Shown here: positions 1 to 48,531 of the stretch, in pieces
Layout of the letters: each line of letters begins with the position of its first letter
How positions within the stretch are numbered: position 1 is the stretch's first letter
Assembly: GCA_046757665.1 (NCBI GenBank)
Contig: JBHHYO010000003.1
Location: forward strand, 24,146-88,145
From: Nitrospinales bacterium
GTDB taxonomy: Bacteria > Nitrospinota > Nitrospinia > Nitrospinales > JAJDAT01
Direction: 5' to 3'
Length of the DNA: 64,000 bases
The notes under the pieces: model-generated
Database searches by the model: none
Told to the model about the DNA's origin: nothing
What the model saw: only the letters and a program-made list of their open reading frames with translations
Position numbers and translations under genes: made by a program

Positions 1-826
1 CATCGGTCGGATAGGCCAGGTTGGCCAAGGTCGCCGGGCCATAGTCGCCGCGGGAAGCGAACAAGCCGTCTCCGGCCACGGTAATGATGACTCCGTCTCT
101 GCCCACCTTGCGGACCCGGTTATTGCCCCGGTCCGCGATATACAAATTTCCCGCGCCATCCAGGGTGATTCCAAAAGGAAATTTTAAAAAAGCATCCTCG
201 GCGGGCCCGAAATCGCCGGCAAAACCGGCAACCCCCAAACCCGCGAAAGTCGTGATGATCCCCCTGGAATCGACCTTGCGGATTCGGTGATTGGAGCGGT
301 CGGATATATAAATGTTTCCGTCGCCGTCACAGGCCACGTCGGAAGGCAAGTTCAAGCTCGCTTGCGTCGCCGGCTCTTCATCTCCCGCATAGTCGGCGAT
401 GCCGTTGCCGGCGATGGTGGTGATGATCCCGGAAGGATCGACCTTGCGCACCCGGTGATTGTTGCGGTCGGCAATGAACAGGTTTCCCTGTTTATCGAAG
501 GCCAGCCCCGCGGGGAAGTTGAGCGAGGCTTCCACGGCGGAGCCGCCATCGCCGCTGAAACCGGCCTTGCCGTTTCCCGCCACCGTTGCGATAATTCCGT
601 TCTTGTCGATTTTCCGGACGCGGTTTTTGGAGCGGTGGGAAATGTAAATATTGCCTTCGGGATCCACGGCAATGCCGTCCACCAAAGTGAGAATGGCCGA
701 AAGCGCGGACCGCCCATCTCCAACGTCCTTGAAGAACCGCACGGGAGCGGAGATAGCCTCGCCCACAAAAACCAGCAGTGCCAGGGCGCAAATCAGCCCC
801 CTGTTCAAACAAGTTGTCATTTTCAT
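1..826 (-). CDS. Secreted NHL-repeat (beta-propeller) protein; 3' end runs off the window
   Basis: Not in the ORF track. Manual translation from ATG at 826 gives MKMTTCLNRGLICALALLVFVGEAISA (signal peptide), then repeated units such as TVAGNGKAGFSGDGGSAVEASLNFPAGLAFDKQGNLFIADRNNHRVRKVD; open to position 1. Confidence 0.9.
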   Translation of the reverse strand, partial: MKMTTCLNRGLICALALLVFVGEAISAPVRFFKDVGDGRSALSAILTLVDGIAVDPEGNIYISHRSKNRVRKIDKNGIIATVAGNGKAGFSGDGGSAVEASLNFPAGLAFDKQGNLFIADRNNHRVRKVDPSGIITTIAGNGIADYAGDEEPATQASLNLPSDVACDGDGNIYISDRSNHRIRKVDSRGIITTFAGLGVAGFAGDFGPAEDAFLKFPFGITLDGAGNLYIADRGNNRVRKVGRDGVIITVAGDGLFASRGDYGPATLANLAYPTD

Positions 827-872
827 ACTGCCCGCCAAATCGAAAGCTTCCCGCGGCAAGCCGTGCAGAGCG

Positions 873-1304
873 TCAGGGCGACCGGCTTGCCGTCTTGCCT
901 TCAGCCTCCATCTCAAAATTCTCCAGGATCGGACAGTCGGAAGTCGGCGCGTTTGTGCGGCATTTCTCGATCAGCCCGGTCAGCGCTTTGCGCATCGATT
1001 TCAAGTTCCTGATTTTTTTCTCAACCTCATCCAGCTTGCCCTGGGCCTTCCGCAAAACCGGTCCGCAGGCCTTGCCCTTGCGCACGCGGAGCTTCAACAG
1101 CTCGGCGATTTCCTCCAGGGTAAACCCCAGTTTCTGGGCGTTTTTGATAAAGCGGACCCGGGCGGCGTCCGACCCGGTGTAAAGCCGGTAGCCCTTCTCC
1201 GAGCGCAACGGCGGGTCGAGCAGTCGCCGGTTCTCGTAATAGCGGAGCGCCTCGATGTTGATTCCGCATCGGCGCGCCAATTCGCCGCGTTTCAAGTATC
1301 CCAT
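873..1304 (-). CDS. merR: MerR-family heavy-metal-responsive regulator (three-Cys, Hg(II)/divalent type)
   Basis: MerR HTH (GELARRCGINIEALRYYE...GYRLY...RFIKNAQKLGFTLEEI). Cys80, Cys115, Cys124 (CPIL) have the same 35/9 spacing as the Hg ligands C82/C117/C126 of Tn501 MerR. Confidence 0.85.
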   Translation of the reverse strand: MGYLKRGELARRCGINIEALRYYENRRLLDPPLRSEKGYRLYTGSDAARVRFIKNAQKLGFTLEEIAELLKLRVRKGKACGPVLRKAQGKLDEVEKKIRNLKSMRKALTGLIEKCRTNAPTSDCPILENFEMEAEGKTASRSP

Positions 1305-1328
1305 GATTCCTCCTGCCTCTCTCTCAAT

Positions 1329-1359
1329 AATATATCCCTGTATCTTGATACAGGGTCAA
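1329..1359 (-). promoter_or_regulatory. MerR-type promoter/operator upstream of merR (19-bp spacer)
   Basis: Minus strand reads TTGACC-CTGTATCAAGATACAGGGA-TATATT, with a perfect dyad CCCTGTATC-AA-GATACAGGG between the -35 and -10 elements. Confidence 0.85.
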
Positions 1360-1411
1360 GGAGAAAATGCGCCGGGGGCGATTTTCTCCCAAGTCCGGCG
1401 GGCGGTTGCGG

Positions 1412-2404
1412 TCAGGGCAACCCGCTTTTCAAGTGGAATATCTGAACGCGGTTGTTGCCCCAATCGACGGCATAGAGCCGGTTTTGCGAGTCCAGGGCGA
1501 GGTCGGTCGGCGCGTTGAACCGGCCCGGCTCCTCTCCCTTGCCGCCCCACTGGGCGAGATACGAACCCTGATCCGAGAAGACCTCGACGCGGTGGTTGTA
1601 GAAATCCGCGACGTACACGCGGCCGTCCCCGCCGACGGCAATTCCGGCAGTGACCCGGAACTGCCCGCCCAGGTACCCGGCGCCCCCCCATTGAAACAGG
1701 AACTTTCCCCCGGAGGTGAAAACCTGTACCCGGTTGTTGTAGGCGTCGGAAACGTAAACCCTGTCTTTCGGCCCCACGGCGATGCGGGCCGGATAATTAA
1801 AATTGCCCTCGGCGCCGGGATTGATCATGAAGGAAAAAAACGACCGCACCACATTGATGGGCCGGTACTCGCCCCATGCCTGCAAAAAGTTCCCCTGTGA
1901 ATCGAATTTTTGCAGTCGATGATTGTAGGTCTCGATGACGTACAGGTTGTCGTGGGAATCGACGGCCACGCCGCCGGGGGAATCGAACTGGCCATGCCCT
2001 TTGCCGTTGCCTCCCCACTGTTTCAGAAAGCGCCCCTCGGCGTCGAATTTCTGGATGCGGTCCAGATCGTAATCGCTGACATACACGTTGCCCCGCGAGT
2101 CCACCGCCAGGCCGGACGGTTTTTCAAATTGGCCCGGCGCGTCGCCCTGCCCGCCCCATTGCCGGACGAATTTGCCGCTGGCGTCGAATTGTTGCACGCG
2201 GTGGTTGCGCACGTCTCCCACATAGACCCGGCCCTTGCCGTCAACGGCAATGGCGTAGGGCTCATCGAACTCGCCCGGCCGCTCGCCTTTTTTGCCGAAT
2301 GCGTCAACCCCGGAAAACGGCGGCGCCCCGCCCGAACAGCCGCCGAGTAAAAGAACAACAAGAAAACCCAAGAGGAGGCAGACCATGCGGAAGCGTTGCA
2401 TCAT
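1412..2404 (-). CDS. NHL-repeat six-bladed beta-propeller lipoprotein
   Basis: Start at MMQRFRMVCLLLGFLVVLLLGGC (lipobox). Six repeats of the form GxFxxPxG(I/L)AVDxxGxVYVxDxxNHRVQxF. Start overlaps the stop of the HMA gene (ATGA). Confidence 0.88.
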   Translation of the reverse strand: MMQRFRMVCLLLGFLVVLLLGGCSGGAPPFSGVDAFGKKGERPGEFDEPYAIAVDGKGRVYVGDVRNHRVQQFDASGKFVRQWGGQGDAPGQFEKPSGLAVDSRGNVYVSDYDLDRIQKFDAEGRFLKQWGGNGKGHGQFDSPGGVAVDSHDNLYVIETYNHRLQKFDSQGNFLQAWGEYRPINVVRSFFSFMINPGAEGNFNYPARIAVGPKDRVYVSDAYNNRVQVFTSGGKFLFQWGGAGYLGGQFRVTAGIAVGGDGRVYVADFYNHRVEVFSDQGSYLAQWGGKGEEPGRFNAPTDLALDSQNRLYAVDWGNNRVQIFHLKSGLP

Positions 2405-2730
2405 TTGCCTCCCTTCGTTGCGGAGCGCGTGATGGGTCCGGGCGTAAATCCGGCGTCGTCCACCGCCCGGTTGACCGCCGCGTCGCTGAGCGTGGCGCCG
2501 GGCCTGAGATAGAGCTTGGCCACGCCCTGTTTCAAATGAACCTCGACCCGCGCCACCCCCTTCAGCCGCTTCAATTTTTTCTCGACGCCATAGGTGCAGA
2601 ACGGACAAAACATGCCCTTCACTTTTACGGTGATGACCTCCTTGCCGTCCTGCGCGAAAACGGGCGGCGCCGCTTGCAGGAGAAAGGCGGCCAGCACGGC
2701 GATCCAAAAAACGGATTTTGTATTTGTCAT
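2401..2730 (-). CDS. Exported heavy-metal-associated (HMA; MerP/CopZ-like) protein
   Basis: Signal peptide (VFA-Q) followed by VKVKGMFCPFCTYGVEKKLKRLKGV, a GMxCxxC HMA motif; RBS AGGAG upstream. Confidence 0.88.
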   Translation of the reverse strand: MTNTKSVFWIAVLAAFLLQAAPPVFAQDGKEVITVKVKGMFCPFCTYGVEKKLKRLKGVARVEVHLKQGVAKLYLRPGATLSDAAVNRAVDDAGFTPGPITRSATKGGK

Positions 2731-2746
2731 GGAGTCCTTCTCCTTT

Positions 2747-3640
2747 TTAAAAGGTGTAGCGAAAACTGAACGCAAGCTGATAATCGGATTCCAACTGGTT
2801 GCCGTTCAAGTCTTGCACGATCGGAACTTGAATGGAAAACCCGAAAATCGTCTGCTGATCGACGAACTGGATTCCCGGCGAAAGGAACAGCGTGTTGCCG
2901 CCGGAGGCCTCGACGGTACTTCCCCCGGCCGCATTGCGCCGGGTGTAGACGCCATTGAGTTCCAGGACGGCATTCCACTGGGTGTAAAGCCCCTCGTCGG
3001 GAAACGTCCAGGGCCAGAACCTTCTCTGGTAGGCGAAGTTGTAATTGAATTTGTCGCCGAAGTCGAAATCATTTGCCTCGCGATTAAATTTGTAGACGAC
3101 GTTGATGTCCACCTCCTGGGAGAGCGAACCGAAGGTGTACAATCCGCCGGCAATAAAATCCACGGAGCCGGACCCCAACTGCAAGGGCGCGGGGAGAACG
3201 CCCGCGGAGTCGCGCTCCTCATTGTCGCCCGTCGGCAGTTCCAGCCCGCCGATCACGGAAAACCGCGAAGTCGTTCCCTTGTAATCCAGGGTATAAAACC
3301 GGTACTTGCCCAGAAGCGTGGTGTCGCCCACCCCCTGGTTGCTCCGGGTGGAGCCGCCGGCGGTTCGCAAATCCTTGTTGATATAAGGCGCCTTCACCAG
3401 CACCGCGGCCCGGGACGTAATCCCGTAAACCCCCACCACCGGCAGGGTGAAAACGTCCAGCTTGCGGTTCCGGCCGGAAGGGTCGTCGGCCTTGCGCACG
3501 AACCGCGCCTGAGTGCGCACAATGACCTGTCCCTTGAAGGGAGTGAGGCCGACGTCGCTGTTGATCGGCGCGGCAAAAACCGGGCCGCCGCAAAACATGA
3601 GAACTATTAAGGACGATAATAAAAATTTCGGTTTAAACAT
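2747..3640 (-). CDS. Outer-membrane beta-barrel transporter (MetA-pathway/SphA-like family)
   Basis: Signal peptide; GVGDTTLLGKYRF, GLELPTG, LQLGSGSVD and GGNTLFLSPG motifs; C-terminal FSFRYTF with a terminal Phe (BAM signal). Confidence 0.78.
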   Translation of the reverse strand: MFKPKFLLSSLIVLMFCGGPVFAAPINSDVGLTPFKGQVIVRTQARFVRKADDPSGRNRKLDVFTLPVVGVYGITSRAAVLVKAPYINKDLRTAGGSTRSNQGVGDTTLLGKYRFYTLDYKGTTSRFSVIGGLELPTGDNEERDSAGVLPAPLQLGSGSVDFIAGGLYTFGSLSQEVDINVVYKFNREANDFDFGDKFNYNFAYQRRFWPWTFPDEGLYTQWNAVLELNGVYTRRNAAGGSTVEASGGNTLFLSPGIQFVDQQTIFGFSIQVPIVQDLNGNQLESDYQLAFSFRYTF

Positions 3641-3675
3641 AATCGGTTCCTTCCTTTTTGGACCTTTCAATATGC

Positions 3676-3707
3676 AGTATAGACTCTGTATTTAAGTACA
3701 GGGTAAA
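3676..3707 (-). promoter_or_regulatory. Second MerR-type promoter/operator (20-bp spacer), upstream of the beta-barrel gene
   Basis: Minus strand reads TTTACC-CTGTACTTAAATACAGAGTC-TATACT; carries the same CTGTA-N6-TACAG dyad as the site at 1329-1359. Confidence 0.8.
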
Positions 3708-3762: not shown

Positions 3763-4203
3763 TTAAAGGCGGAAAACGGATTGGAGCAGAAACAGCGGCG
3801 GCGTCTTTCCGGCCCGCACATGACCGGACGCAAGGCGGTCCGATGTGGACGATGTCCGCGGCAGAAGCCCGGCGGCGGCGCAATCGGCGGCACAGGGGAA
3901 GGCAATGGATTTGACCGATGGAGCCGAGGGCAGGATTTTCGCTACGGCGATAGTGGGAAAACGCTTGACTCCCATAACCGAGGCGCAACGGTCCTGGCAA
4001 CACTGGACATGCGCCGCGCCGCTTTCGCCGCAATTCTTCATGTCCCCATGCCCGTGCGCCTTCATGGCCGGTATCTTGTGGGAGCAGAAGATTTTGCAAC
4101 ACAGCCGGGCCTCGCCCGAGGCCACGGGAGCCTTGATGGGAAGTATCAAACCCGTTAAAACGAGGCCGAGAGCCAGCTTGTATGCAAACGATTTTTTAAT
4201 CAT
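3763..4203 (-). CDS. Cys/His-rich small exported or membrane protein, possibly a metal-sensing leader (DUF2946/HYC_CC_PP-like)
   Basis: N-terminal hydrophobic segment; CCKIFCSH, HGHGDM, HVQCCQDRC; C-terminus TPPLFLLQSVFRL. Confidence 0.6.
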   Translation of the reverse strand: MIKKSFAYKLALGLVLTGLILPIKAPVASGEARLCCKIFCSHKIPAMKAHGHGDMKNCGESGAAHVQCCQDRCASVMGVKRFPTIAVAKILPSAPSVKSIAFPCAADCAAAGLLPRTSSTSDRLASGHVRAGKTPPLFLLQSVFRL

Positions 4204-4327
4204 AAAATAGACGGAAACCGATTTCACATGTTCGGTTTAAATATACTCCCCGCACGGGGCGCAAAGTCAATCAAAAAAACACCCGCCGGGAGAAAACCGG
4301 GAACCGATGTCCGCCGCCTTATTGAAA

Positions 4328-4594: not shown

Positions 4595-5494
4595 TTATCC
4601 GTCGGTATGATTTAGCGGGTGGTTGTCGAAAAATTTTTGCATGAGGGGAACGATGCGCTCGTGGGCGTCCTCGACGACGTAATGTCCGGCGTCCGCAAAT
4701 TCGTGCAATTCGGCTTGGGGAAAATATTCCAGCCAGCGTTCCAGGTAGTGGTCGTTGAAGCAAAAATCCTTTTTCCCCCAGAGGATCAAAACGGGCCGGT
4801 CGGCGAACTGGGTCAATTGCTCCTGCATGGATTTGACGAGGGGGAAGCTCGGCGTTTTTCGCGACATCGGAATGTCCTGCACGAAGCGCAGGATGGCGAC
4901 GCGGTTGGCGTAGGTGTCGTAGGGGAAAAGGTAGCCGGCCTTGACTTGCGGGCTCATGGGCCGCCGGCAGGCGCGGGAAACCGCCAGGCCCGCGAAGGCG
5001 TTCAGGCCGCGGACGGCCAGGGGGCCGAATAGCGGCAGTCGGCACAGGTTGATGCTCCAGGGAATCTCCCGCGACAGGAAGGCGGCGGTGTTGAACAGCA
5101 CCAGGCGCTTGACGCGGCCGGGATGGCGGACGGCGTACCCCATGCCGATGGCGCCGCCCCAGTCGTGCAGAACCAGCGTCAGGCCGGTCAGGCCCAGATG
5201 CTCCACCAGCGCCTCCAGGTTGTCGACGTGCCGCGCCAGGGTGTAGTCGTATTGTTGCGGTTTGTCGGACAGGCCGCAACCCATGTGGTCCGGCGCCACG
5301 CAACGGCACTGCTCCCTCAACCCGAGGATGAGGTTGCGGTAATAAAAAGACCAGGTGGGGTTGCCGTGCAACATCAACACGGCGTCGCCCTGGCCCTCGT
5401 CCAGGTAGTGGTATCGCAGGGAGTCCAGGGAGAGGGTTCTGGATTGGAAGGGATACAACTCGGCGAACGCCCGCCGTTTGTCATCGGTCACCAT
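4595..5494 (-). CDS. oleB: OleB-like alpha/beta hydrolase (haloalkane dehalogenase family; beta-lactone decarboxylase)
   Basis: HGNPTWSFYYR, APDHMGCGLSDKP, HDWGG nucleophile elbow, RFVQDIP, DAGHYVVEDA; start overlaps the oleA stop. Confidence 0.85.
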   Translation of the reverse strand: MVTDDKRRAFAELYPFQSRTLSLDSLRYHYLDEGQGDAVLMLHGNPTWSFYYRNLILGLREQCRCVAPDHMGCGLSDKPQQYDYTLARHVDNLEALVEHLGLTGLTLVLHDWGGAIGMGYAVRHPGRVKRLVLFNTAAFLSREIPWSINLCRLPLFGPLAVRGLNAFAGLAVSRACRRPMSPQVKAGYLFPYDTYANRVAILRFVQDIPMSRKTPSFPLVKSMQEQLTQFADRPVLILWGKKDFCFNDHYLERWLEYFPQAELHEFADAGHYVVEDAHERIVPLMQKFFDNHPLNHTDG

Positions 5495-6534
5495 TCCAAC
5501 CCGAGCATCAGGCAGTTCAAGCCGCTGCCGATGCCGAGGAGCGCGGCCTTGTCGCCTTTTTTGAGGCACCCCGCCTCCTCGCCCAGGGCCAGGGTGGCCG
5601 GCAGGGAGGCGGCGCCCGTGTTGCCCAGAAACTCCAGGGTCGAGAAGTCCTTTTCCATCGGCAGGCGCAGGGTTTCGTACATGAGCTTGCGGTGCAGGTG
5701 ACCGACCTGATGGCAAAACACGCGGTCCACGTCGTCGTTGCTCCAGGCAAGCGTGGCCTTGGTTTTCTCCCAGGTTTTTCCCGCCAGCAGGCATCCTTGT
5801 TTCATGAGGGTTTCCGAATCGGTTGTCATGAGCGGCGTGGATTCGGCGTTCATGCCGCCGTCGGCGTTGCCGCGGCAGAGGTCGTTGAACTCGGTGGCGG
5901 CCCAGGCCTCGCCGCCCAGGAGTTTGTGGTAGGACCGGGACAAACTGCGGTGCGTCAGCAAGACCGCCGCCGCGCCGGAGCCGATGGTCAGCGAGGCGAA
6001 GGAGGATTTCACGTCGGCGCGTTTGAGTTCGGGGTTCGAGCGAAGCGTTTCGATGGTGTGGTCGATGAGGGGGCCGCCGTTCTCGCCGGCCACCACCAGG
6101 CCGGCGCGGATTTGCCCCAGCTCGATCATGTCGGCGATAATCACCATTCCGTTGAGCACGCCCAGGCAAGCGTTGGACACGTCGAACAGCAGGGCCTCCC
6201 GCGACAGGTCCAGATTGTGATGGATGACCGAGGCGGTGGCGGGCTCCAGAAAGTCGCGGCACACCGAGGCGCAAATCAGGCAACCGATTTCGCCGCGGTC
6301 CAGCCCGGATTTCTCGATGGCCTTTTCGCCGGCGACGGAGCTGATTTCGCTGGGATAGACGCCGTTGTTCCAGAACCGGCGCTCGCGGATGCCGCTCATC
6401 ATCTCCAGGCGGCCGTAGGGCAGTTTCAACCGGTCGTAAACCTCCGCCAGCCGCTGTTCCAGCTCCGCCGAGGGCACGATGTTTTCCGGCAAATGGCAGG
6501 CCACGGCCTCGACGCAAACATTTTCAAATTTCAT
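5488..6534 (-). CDS. oleA: OleA acyl-CoA:acyl-CoA alkyltransferase (thiolase/FabH superfamily)
   Basis: GIRERRFW, EPATA, FDVSNACLG (catalytic Cys), FASLTIGSGA, HQVG, GNTGAAS, GIGSGLNC. Confidence 0.9.
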   Translation of the reverse strand: MKFENVCVEAVACHLPENIVPSAELEQRLAEVYDRLKLPYGRLEMMSGIRERRFWNNGVYPSEISSVAGEKAIEKSGLDRGEIGCLICASVCRDFLEPATASVIHHNLDLSREALLFDVSNACLGVLNGMVIIADMIELGQIRAGLVVAGENGGPLIDHTIETLRSNPELKRADVKSSFASLTIGSGAAAVLLTHRSLSRSYHKLLGGEAWAATEFNDLCRGNADGGMNAESTPLMTTDSETLMKQGCLLAGKTWEKTKATLAWSNDDVDRVFCHQVGHLHRKLMYETLRLPMEKDFSTLEFLGNTGAASLPATLALGEEAGCLKKGDKAALLGIGSGLNCLMLGLEW

Positions 6535-47865: not shown

Positions 47866-48531
47866 ATGAAAAAGAAAATCGGTGTGGTGCTTTCGGGATG
47901 CGGCGTTTATGACGGCGCGGAGATTCATGAATCGGTGCTGACCCTGCTGGCCATCGACCGGGCGGGAGCGGAAGCGGTCTGCATGGCTCCCGACGTCGAT
48001 CAGATGCACGTGGTCAACCACCTGACCGGCGAGGAAGCGGCGGGGGAAAAACGCAACGTGCTGGTCGAGTCGGCGCGCATCGCCCGCGGCCAGGTTAAGG
48101 ACATCAGCGCGGTGAAAGCCGACGATATTGACGCGCTGATCTTCCCCGGCGGGTTCGGCGCCGCCAAGAACTTGTCCGATTTCGCCGTCAAGGGAGAACA
48201 TTGTAGCGTCCATCCGGAAGTCGTCCGCCTCATCCGCGAGTTCGCCGCCAAGGAAAAACCGCAAGCCGCCTGTTGCATCGCCCCGGCGATGTACGCCAAG
48301 GTCTTCGAGGGACAGGGCGTCCATCCCACCCTCACCGTCGGCAACGACAAGGAAGTCAGCGGAAAAATCGAAACCATGGGCGGCAAGCACCAGGAATGCG
48401 GCGCCGAGGACATGGTGTTCGACGAGGCAAACAAAATCGTCTCGACGCCGGCCTACATGACGGGCCAGAGCATCGGTCAAGTCGCCGCCGGCATCGAAAA
48501 AACCGTCAACAAGCTGGTGAGCCTGCTGTAA
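47866..48531 (+). CDS. elbB: Glyoxalase ElbB (DJ-1/PfpI/ES1 family)
   Basis: LSGCGVYDGAEIHE, RNVLVESARIARG, PGGFGAAKNL, CIAP, STPAYM. Confidence 0.95.
   Translation: MKKKIGVVLSGCGVYDGAEIHESVLTLLAIDRAGAEAVCMAPDVDQMHVVNHLTGEEAAGEKRNVLVESARIARGQVKDISAVKADDIDALIFPGGFGAAKNLSDFAVKGEHCSVHPEVVRLIREFAAKEKPQAACCIAPAMYAKVFEGQGVHPTLTVGNDKEVSGKIETMGGKHQECGAEDMVFDEANKIVSTPAYMTGQSIGQVAAGIEKTVNKLVSLL

Follow-up and report, generated by a model that had tools for sequence, protein, structure and literature searches.

A two-promoter MerR-type regulon of a Nitrospinales bacterium with a predicted outer-membrane channel, a CPFC-containing HMA protein and NHL propellers

In mer systems MerT-type proteins act as importers. 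The combination of a periplasmic metallochaperone with an outer-membrane protein, both under a metal sensor, is known from periplasmic copper handling of the CusF/CusCBA and PcoB/CopB types. For mercury, the accessible text of a 2021 survey of mer genes names no protein for an outer-membrane step and contains none of the terms 'beta-barrel', 'propeller' or 'Nitrospin', and the legend to its Figure 1 draws some steps as diffusion. Here we analyze a 64,000-nucleotide stretch from the 2.97-Mb genome of a Nitrospinales bacterium (contig C3, positions 24146-88145; called the window). It begins with a group of genes that is best read as the transport arm of a mer system that reaches out to the outer membrane and, in this genome, is uncoupled from MerA.

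The locus resembles the transport arm of mer operons in having a three-Cys MerR-type activator, an operator dyad inside promoter spacers of 19-20 nt, an exported HMA protein and an inner-membrane MerT homologue with a vicinal Cys pair, and in other bacteria related loci are physically linked to true mer operons. It differs in that no MerA was found in the genome, that its HMA protein scores far under the MerP cut-off and carries CPFC, and that its MerT homologue lacks the third helix. Its additional components are an outer-membrane barrel of its own, propellers, and LRR and DF proteins. Compared with CusF/CusCBA and PcoB/CopB, the contig has neither an RND pump nor a membrane-fusion protein, the barrel belongs to another family, and the sensor is of the three-Cys MerR type.

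A previous reading of the sequence alone (the sequence-only reading) had described five co-oriented genes and two long-spacer promoters with a common dyad at positions 1-3707, and this arrangement stands. All the genes lie on the minus strand. The first promoter, P1, is followed by the gene for the outer-membrane beta-barrel of the COG4313/PF13557 kind (2747-3640; 297 amino acids from the ATG), assigned from the PF13557 of its relatives and a fold match, and by those for an exported HMA protein with the motif GMFCPFC (2401-2730; 109 amino acids; PF00403) and an NHL lipoprotein with a six-blade propeller and the lipobox LLGGC (1412-2404; 330 amino acids; PF01436). The start of the NHL gene overlaps the stop of the HMA gene, which suggests translational coupling. 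The second promoter, P2, stands in front of the gene for a merR-family metal sensor (873-1304; 143 amino acids; PF13411 and PF09278). Then comes a gene for a secreted double NHL propeller, whose N-terminal 275 codons are within the window (2-826, start near 826) and which continues past position 1. As in Gram-positive mer operons, merR is the first gene of its own operon. The sequence-only reading had also held that every non-regulatory product is extracytoplasmic, and this is true of those encoded inside the window.

P1 (3676-3707, minus strand) has a −35 element TTTACC (3702-3707) and a −10 element TATACT (3676-3681) separated by 20 nt, with a CTGTA-N6-TACAG dyad (3686-3701) that abuts the −35. 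P2 (1329-1359, minus strand) has −35 TTGACC (1354-1359), a 19-nt spacer and −10 TATATT (1329-1334), and AGGAGG and then the merR start lie downstream of the −10. Its dyad, CCCTGTAT-N4-ATACAGGG (1336-1355), also abuts the −35, with the caveat that, standing behind the NHL gene, it scores as a weak terminator-like hairpin as well. Both promoters thus have an operator dyad inside a spacer of 19-20 nt, as for Hg(II)-responsive MerR, and a standard promoter scan with spacers of 16-18 nt misses both, as expected for long spacers. The window contains two copies of CTGTA-N6-TACAG (1338-1353 and 3686-3701), compared with 0 in 100 shuffles, and the whole genome has three. The third, on contig C6 at position 48082 (about 4083 in the extracted locus L123), lies between open reading frames without a Pfam family, and is not counted as a member of the regulon. 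The same type of dyad precedes the orthologous merR in two related loci, L033 and L038.

The regulator has both the winged helix and the dimerization helix of its family (PF13411, 65 bits; PF09278, 70 bits). Among solved structures its best relative is MerR of Bacillus megaterium with Hg(II) bound (4ua1; E = 2.7e-26), and Cys80, Cys115 and Cys124 of the regulator align with Cys79, Cys114 and Cys123 of that protein, with the same 8-residue spacing. According to the accessible part of the structural report (PMC4551924), those three cysteines are the Hg ligands, and the 8-residue spacing favors tridentate Hg. The three ligand positions are kept in 38, 44 and 44, respectively, of 44 MerR proteins associated with related barrel genes. 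This alignment with the ligands of a solved MerR bears out the proposal of a MerR-type regulon and, as judged from sequence, the locus is a real one. In the genome a single gene of the MerR family resembled the query.

The analysis also covered the 16 kb of contig C3 that precede window position 1. On the same strand the second operon extends for about another 3.5 kb beyond that position, and the whole two-promoter regulon spans about 8.5 kb. The double NHL gene is followed by genes for an exported LRR protein (LRR_6), a MerT homologue, a DF protein and a membrane protein with a weak match to YnfA, and a convergent S-adenosylhomocysteine hydrolase gene ends the unit. What had been called simply a secreted NHL protein is indeed secreted and of the NHL type, but when read as a whole gene (L009:14676-16916) it is a double propeller of 716-746 amino acids (TEN_NHL, 280 bits; NHL, 186 bits). 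An orthologue with 75% identity follows merR in L038.

The MerT homologue (L009:13210-13482; 90 amino acids) lies about 2.5 kb past position 1. It has two helices, with a vicinal Cys pair in the first (VCCVGP) and a second pair (RC, TCE) after the second. As a single sequence it falls below the family cut-offs (PF02411, 19 versus 32.9; NF010314, 20.9 versus 150), with weak E values of 3e-4 and 1.5e-3. Alignment with its two orthologues, compared by hhalign with an alignment of true mer-operon MerT proteins, gave a probability of 98.2% with E = 5.9e-14. The three helices of MerT are not all present in this genome, where the copy ends after helix 2, but the L033 orthologue keeps the third. The orthologues accompany the orthologous MerR in both L033 and L038. 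The sequence-only reading had described the regulon as lacking mer machinery, and had looked to merA, merT or an ATPase just beyond the window as what would overturn it. With a MerT homologue in the same operon the description is only half true; the part that stands is that no MerA was found in the genome. The lack of a pump at the locus was correctly noted. No P1B ATPase, CDF or RND pump was found on contig C3, and the only P1B ATPase of the genome is on another contig.

The DF protein (L009:12879-13205; 108 amino acids) is thioredoxin-like, with 121.1 bits to NF049942 against a cut-off of 70. Genes of this (seleno)protein family recur directly after the NHL lipoprotein or the MerT homologue (L029:10242-10568, L038:8997-9395 and the present copy). 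In human NHLRC2, as far as the source consulted goes, a thioredoxin-like domain is fused to an NHL propeller. A paralogue of the double NHL protein, of 738 amino acids, is encoded on contig C10 (L122:17235-19451), beside genes for two multihaem c-type cytochromes (880 and 721 amino acids) and a dihaem cytochrome c (L122:10731-15547). This indicates that the double NHL family is not tied to metal stress. NHL-repeat proteins, UetHI, also belong to the Uet electron-uptake cluster, according to the accessible part of its description.

The window barrel has no Pfam match at E values up to 0.1 and none in NCBIfam, and PF13557 is precomputed on most of its listed relatives. The structural model (pLDDT 90.1) has 13 strand elements by DSSP, and its Foldseek matches include FapF (5o65; TM 0.68/0.73) and Pput2725 (4rl8; TM 0.66/0.72). 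Barrels with 12 strands and some 300 residues are the closest folds, the size range for such channels being about 270-320 residues, and the protein is predicted from its model to be a COG4313-type outer-membrane channel of about 12 strands. With the COG4313 channels Pput2725, TcpY and SphA it shares a 12-stranded fold of about 300 residues and the occurrence of PF13557 on most listed relatives. It differs from them in its metal-sensing context, in place of aromatic or lipid catabolism, and in having no Pfam match of its own; it is a distinct subfamily. That subfamily has 463 cluster representatives at E values up to 1e-30.

The exported protein encoded next to it matches PF00403 with 29.4 bits (cut-off 24.8), and scores 34.2 bits with the MerP model TIGR02052, below the cut-off of 92.55. 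It has the general features of MerP, i.e. an N-terminal hydrophobic leader, the HMA fold and a CxxC sequence, here CPFC. Its relatives have the motif G-[LM]-x-C-P-F-C, with C42, P43 and C45 invariant in 71 out of 71.

The NHL lipoprotein matches PF01436 with 162.7 bits in six stretches, and its model (pLDDT 93.5) is a six-blade propeller. Foldseek places it with the TRIM-NHL proteins (Thin, TRIM71, TRIM2/3 and Brat) and the sensor domain of PknD, with TM 0.8-0.95 and 25-36% identity. These proteins have the same six-bladed NHL fold; the difference is that the window protein is a bacterial lipoprotein in a metal regulon. No PAL-type enzyme is among the Foldseek matches listed, at ranks up to 50.

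A search for related loci with the single barrel sequence returned nothing, and a barrel alignment was needed as the query. HMA and NHL genes stand beside the barrel gene in all ten of the best loci taken from 40 relatives, which are labeled Nitrospinales or Nitrospinaceae, with MerR in six of the ten. We then used a wider set, overlapping with these ten, that comprises the best 80 of 146 confirmed relatives in a scan with the barrel alignment, taking one genome per species. An adjoining CPFC-HMA gene is found in 74 of the 80 loci, an adjoining NHL lipoprotein gene in 56, and the complete trio in 52. Of the loci without NHL, 14 have enough room for the gene and 10 are cut by the end of the contig. 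MerR is present somewhere in 49 of the loci, and in 38 it lies upstream on the same strand. The loci come from Nitrospinota, Nitrospirota, Thermodesulfobacteriota, Alpha- and Gammaproteobacteria, Planctomycetota, Acidobacteriota, a cyanobacterium and others. Barrel, CPFC-HMA protein and NHL lipoprotein therefore constitute a cassette found across phyla, and the gene combination proposed in the sequence-only reading is conserved far beyond the window genome.

The cassette is usually found behind a mer-operator-like promoter. In 24 of the 80 loci a TTGAC hexamer followed by a CCGTAC-N4-GTACGG or CTGTA-N6-TACAG dyad is present on the cassette side, counted by hand from a looser dyad search and allowing at most one mismatch. 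A strict regular-expression search for long-spacer promoters before the cassette merR genes found 10 of 39. The half-site of the window, CTGTAT, is a two-base variant of the CCGTAC found in most related loci, and intermediates occur (L051).

Within the Nitrospinota strong barrel matches are present in 20 of 120 genomes, and this patchy distribution fits an accessory, mobile trait. In a plasmid collection 8 records matched a proteobacterial barrel, of which 1 covered at least 80%. Genes for a relaxase, RlxS (L118:2832-4817), and for the IS66 protein TnpB (L087:11196-11555) stand beside islands that contain both the cassette and mer genes, pointing to mobility in Proteobacteria.

Direct association with mer operons is seen in other bacteria. 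MerA with its C-terminal CC pair is encoded within 6 kb of the cassette in 11 of the 80 loci, and a 12th, L103, is cut at that point. Six of these MerA proteins exceed the TIGR02053 cut-off and are accompanied by MerT and MerP, and in some cases by MerC, MerF or MerE; they come from Thalassospira, Sedimenticola, Halomonas elongata, Haliea, Algihabitans and an enterobacterial bin. The cassette is directly downstream of merA in three of the 80 (L079, L096 and L102). In H. elongata (L079) there is a merR with divergent merP-merF-merA, and after the merA stop a TTGACT-CCGTAG-N4-GTACGG promoter is followed by the HMA, barrel and NHL genes. No second merR lies between the mer genes and the cassette, and the promoter shares its half-site with the mer operator of this locus. 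In L096 and L102 merA is separated by a small open reading frame with a CC pair from the cassette that follows. Lastly, one cassette promoter from Nitrospina can be aligned with the region between merR and merT in a mer operon annotated on an Alteromonas plasmid.

The regulon itself appears to be mosaic. In a quick tree of 79 barrels, the window barrel groups with five others, all from Nitrospinota, in a clade of six rows (SH-aLRT 99). Those five (L039, L040 and L042-L044) have the order Cys-rich gene, barrel, HMA and NHL, with no MerR within 6 kb. L057 and L068, which have the MerR proteins most closely grouped with that of the window, have their barrels in another clade of 62 rows, which holds all 12 of the merA-near cassettes (the 11 loci and L103). 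In L038, the same locus as L057, the genes run in one direction in the order merR, big NHL, LRR, MerT homologue, HMA, barrel, NHL, DF and LRR, which is the gene set of the window locus. From these sequences we infer that the window genome probably joined a cassette of the Cys-rich type to a unit of merR, NHL, LRR and MerT homologue, with a copy of the operator for the cassette. The Cys-rich gene seems to have remained outside the regulon, behind its own TTGACT-19-TATATT site.

That gene (3763-4227, minus strand; from the list of open reading frames) encodes an exported or membrane-anchored protein of 146-154 amino acids with two CC pairs. Homologues lie directly upstream of the barrel gene in all six loci L039-L044. 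The protein matched no Pfam or NCBIfam family, and a word-based search recovered three proteins; its clusters in the ESM Atlas are unnamed, and these are leads. The promoter-like site (4240-4270, minus strand) was read from the sequence as TTGACT, 19 nt and TATATT. Its spacer contains a perfect GC-rich dyad, CCCCG-TG-CGGGG, which is unrelated to the CTGTA dyad and is also listed as a hairpin.

Upstream of the Cys-rich gene, two open reading frames at 4595-6534 have syntenic neighbors in L033 (2231-5151) and L029 (3947-6499) that carry ACP_syn_III_C and Abhydrolase_1. The L033 neighbors, together with the S-adenosylhomocysteine hydrolase gene on the other flank, indicate that L033 has the regulon at the same chromosomal position. 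An ArsP-type permease gene follows the NHL gene in L033 (9945-10898), and in L038 genes for an ArsR-type regulator and an SBF/ACR3-like carrier precede merR (1049-2578). In a planctomycete locus (L110:3814-5763) a 649-amino acid open reading frame directly upstream of the barrel gene combines a domain of the CopZ N-terminal Fe-S type with MerT, HMA and thioredoxin/DsbD-like domains. The only DNA sequencing records listed for the window genome bear a hydrothermal-vent label, and these records may be the source of the assembly.

We propose, with modest confidence, that the locus is a regulon for soft metals of the mercury type that works independently of MerA and extends a MerP/MerT thiol relay to a dedicated outer-membrane channel. 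The three-Cys sensor would bind a thiophilic metal, most likely Hg(II), and activate both of the over-long-spacer promoters. P1 would then drive expression of the 12-stranded COG4313-type channel, the periplasmic CPFC HMA protein as the counterpart of MerP, and the NHL lipoprotein; P2 would drive that of merR, the secreted double NHL protein, the exported LRR protein, the two-helix MerT homologue, the cytoplasmic DF protein and the YnfA-like protein. The HMA protein would bind metal that enters the periplasm or is trapped there, and thiol exchange would hand this metal first to the MerT homologue and then to the DF thiol protein in the cytoplasm. With the barrel the system would have its own regulated outer-membrane passage, and the propellers and the LRR protein might be binding partners or scaffolds, rather than sites for metal. 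Mercuric reductase would play no part. In this scheme we infer the inducer (Hg(II) or another thiophilic metal), the direction of flow and every contact between the proteins.

A number of observations weigh against this proposal. No MerA above the TIGR02053 cut-off was found in the genome, where the four best flavoprotein candidates all lack the C-terminal CC pair, and MerA is absent from all 20 of the cassette-bearing Nitrospinota genomes. Import without reduction looks harmful. The regulator is below every NCBIfam equivalog cut-off, and its score as ZntR (PRK09514, 124.8 bits; cut-off 143) is slightly higher than that as MerR (TIGR02051, 122.5 bits; cut-off 150.85), with CueR at 108.3 bits. 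It has Arg116 and Ala119 where Pro115 and Lys118 stand in MerR, two residues of the metal loop that are described as MerR-specific in the accessible part of PMC4551924. In a tree of 55 rows the window MerR forms a clade of its own with those of L068 and L057 (100/95), which falls neither among the 12 rows of mer-operon MerRs nor among the 29 rows that make up the main cassette group. None of the 12 merA-near cassettes is in the clade of the window barrel, which makes the mercury link of this cassette an indirect one. The role described as probable for the COG4313 channels is the uptake of hydrophobic molecules (PMC4493636, as far as accessible). Lastly, a gene for a P1B efflux ATPase stands beside the cassette in 6 of the 80 loci and in L037, and this fits export at least equally well.

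Taken with the absence of MerA from all 20 of those Nitrospinota genomes, the ATPase neighbors favor capture and release. The system might then be a device for expulsion or exclusion, in which the HMA protein would scavenge periplasmic metal, including that pumped by a P1B ATPase, and deliver this metal to the barrel, through which it would leave the cell, with the propeller lipoprotein as a gate or anchor of the barrel and the MerT homologue as a side branch. Protection fits the cassette without MerA better than import does. In addition the genome has one P1B ATPase elsewhere, and the closest fold match of the barrel, FapF, is an export channel. Yet the outer membrane offers no source of energy, a membrane-fusion protein is lacking, and the MerT homologue belongs to a type that imports in mer systems. 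In L079, L096 and L102 the cassette follows merA, in a setting where import feeds detoxification, and the COG4313 members that have been studied are proposed to be uptake channels (PMC4493636, in the part available). The MerT homologue and the positions downstream of merA favor an inward relay, and expulsion seems to us unlikely. Alternatively, inducer and substrate might be a soft or borderline metal other than mercury (Pb, Cd, Zn, Cu(I), Ag(I) or Au), the mer neighborhood then simply reflecting metal-resistance islands. This would fit the ZntR, MerR and CueR scores, all under their cut-offs, the lack of the MerR-specific loop Pro and Lys, and the occurrence of ATPase neighbors. Furthermore the cassette MerRs group apart from mer-operon MerRs and yet coexist with them in the same loci, which suggests separate signals. 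However, the regulator has three Cys with the 8-residue spacing of Hg-MerR, not the two-Cys loop of 7 residues of CueR, the operators are of mer type, and a MerT homologue lies within the operon. At L079 the cassette promoter and the mer operator share a half-site with no second MerR between them. A different metal is in our view quite unlikely.

The sequence-only reading had the propellers taking metal from the HMA chaperone, so that they would be the end point, for sequestration or for metallation of a propeller enzyme. The overlap of the HMA stop with the NHL start, the presence of NHL with the HMA-barrel pair in 52 of the 80 loci, and the two different NHL proteins in the regulon are consistent with this. 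But there is no conserved Cys or His column among 56 sequences of the NHL lipoprotein, where the invariant residues are those of the repeat scaffold, and the sole frequent soft ligand is a Met found in 77%, replaced by Ser in the window protein. The nearest folds are the binding domains of TRIM-NHL proteins, Brat and PknD and not PAL-type enzymes, so a role of the lipoprotein as metal acceptor is not supported. Nor does the idea sit well with the lack of NHL from the 14 loci with room, or with the big NHL paralogue found beside multihaem cytochromes, and we consider it very improbable. Alternatively the barrel might admit neutral or hydrophobic thiol-reactive species, such as organomercurials or thiolate or chloride complexes of Hg, for binding by the propeller. 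The studied COG4313 members are linked to hydrophobic substrates in the accessible part of PMC4493636, and the NHL fold is a platform for ligand binding. However, no MerB was seen among the neighbors scanned, and the invariant CPFC-HMA partner points to an ionic metal. We give this explanation little credence.

No description of a cassette of barrel, CPFC-HMA protein and NHL lipoprotein was found in the full-text literature searched. Tentatively, and with more doubt than conviction, it could be the first known case of an outer-membrane arm dedicated to handling metals of the mercury type, in which a channel switched by MerR, the CPFC chaperone and the propeller lipoprotein would govern the crossing of the outer membrane by Hg(II) and similar metals. 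In the MerA-less Nitrospinota it might make up, with the MerT homologue and the DF protein, a complete route of uptake or sequestration that needs no reductase. As the 2021 survey names no outer-membrane protein in its accessible text, a sensor-controlled channel with its own chaperone would add the missing outer-membrane step to the picture of mer. Relatives within the Nitrospinota have been discussed as mercury methylators of the ocean, according to the part of that literature consulted. The HgcA cap-helix motif is not found in six-frame translations of the window genome, so for this organism a link to methylation is not supported by the motif search. The finding bears on how nitrite-oxidizing Nitrospinota take up or exclude mercury, and with culturable carriers of the cassette such as Halomonas elongata, Thalassospira profundimaris and Sedimenticola selenatireducens the question is directly testable.

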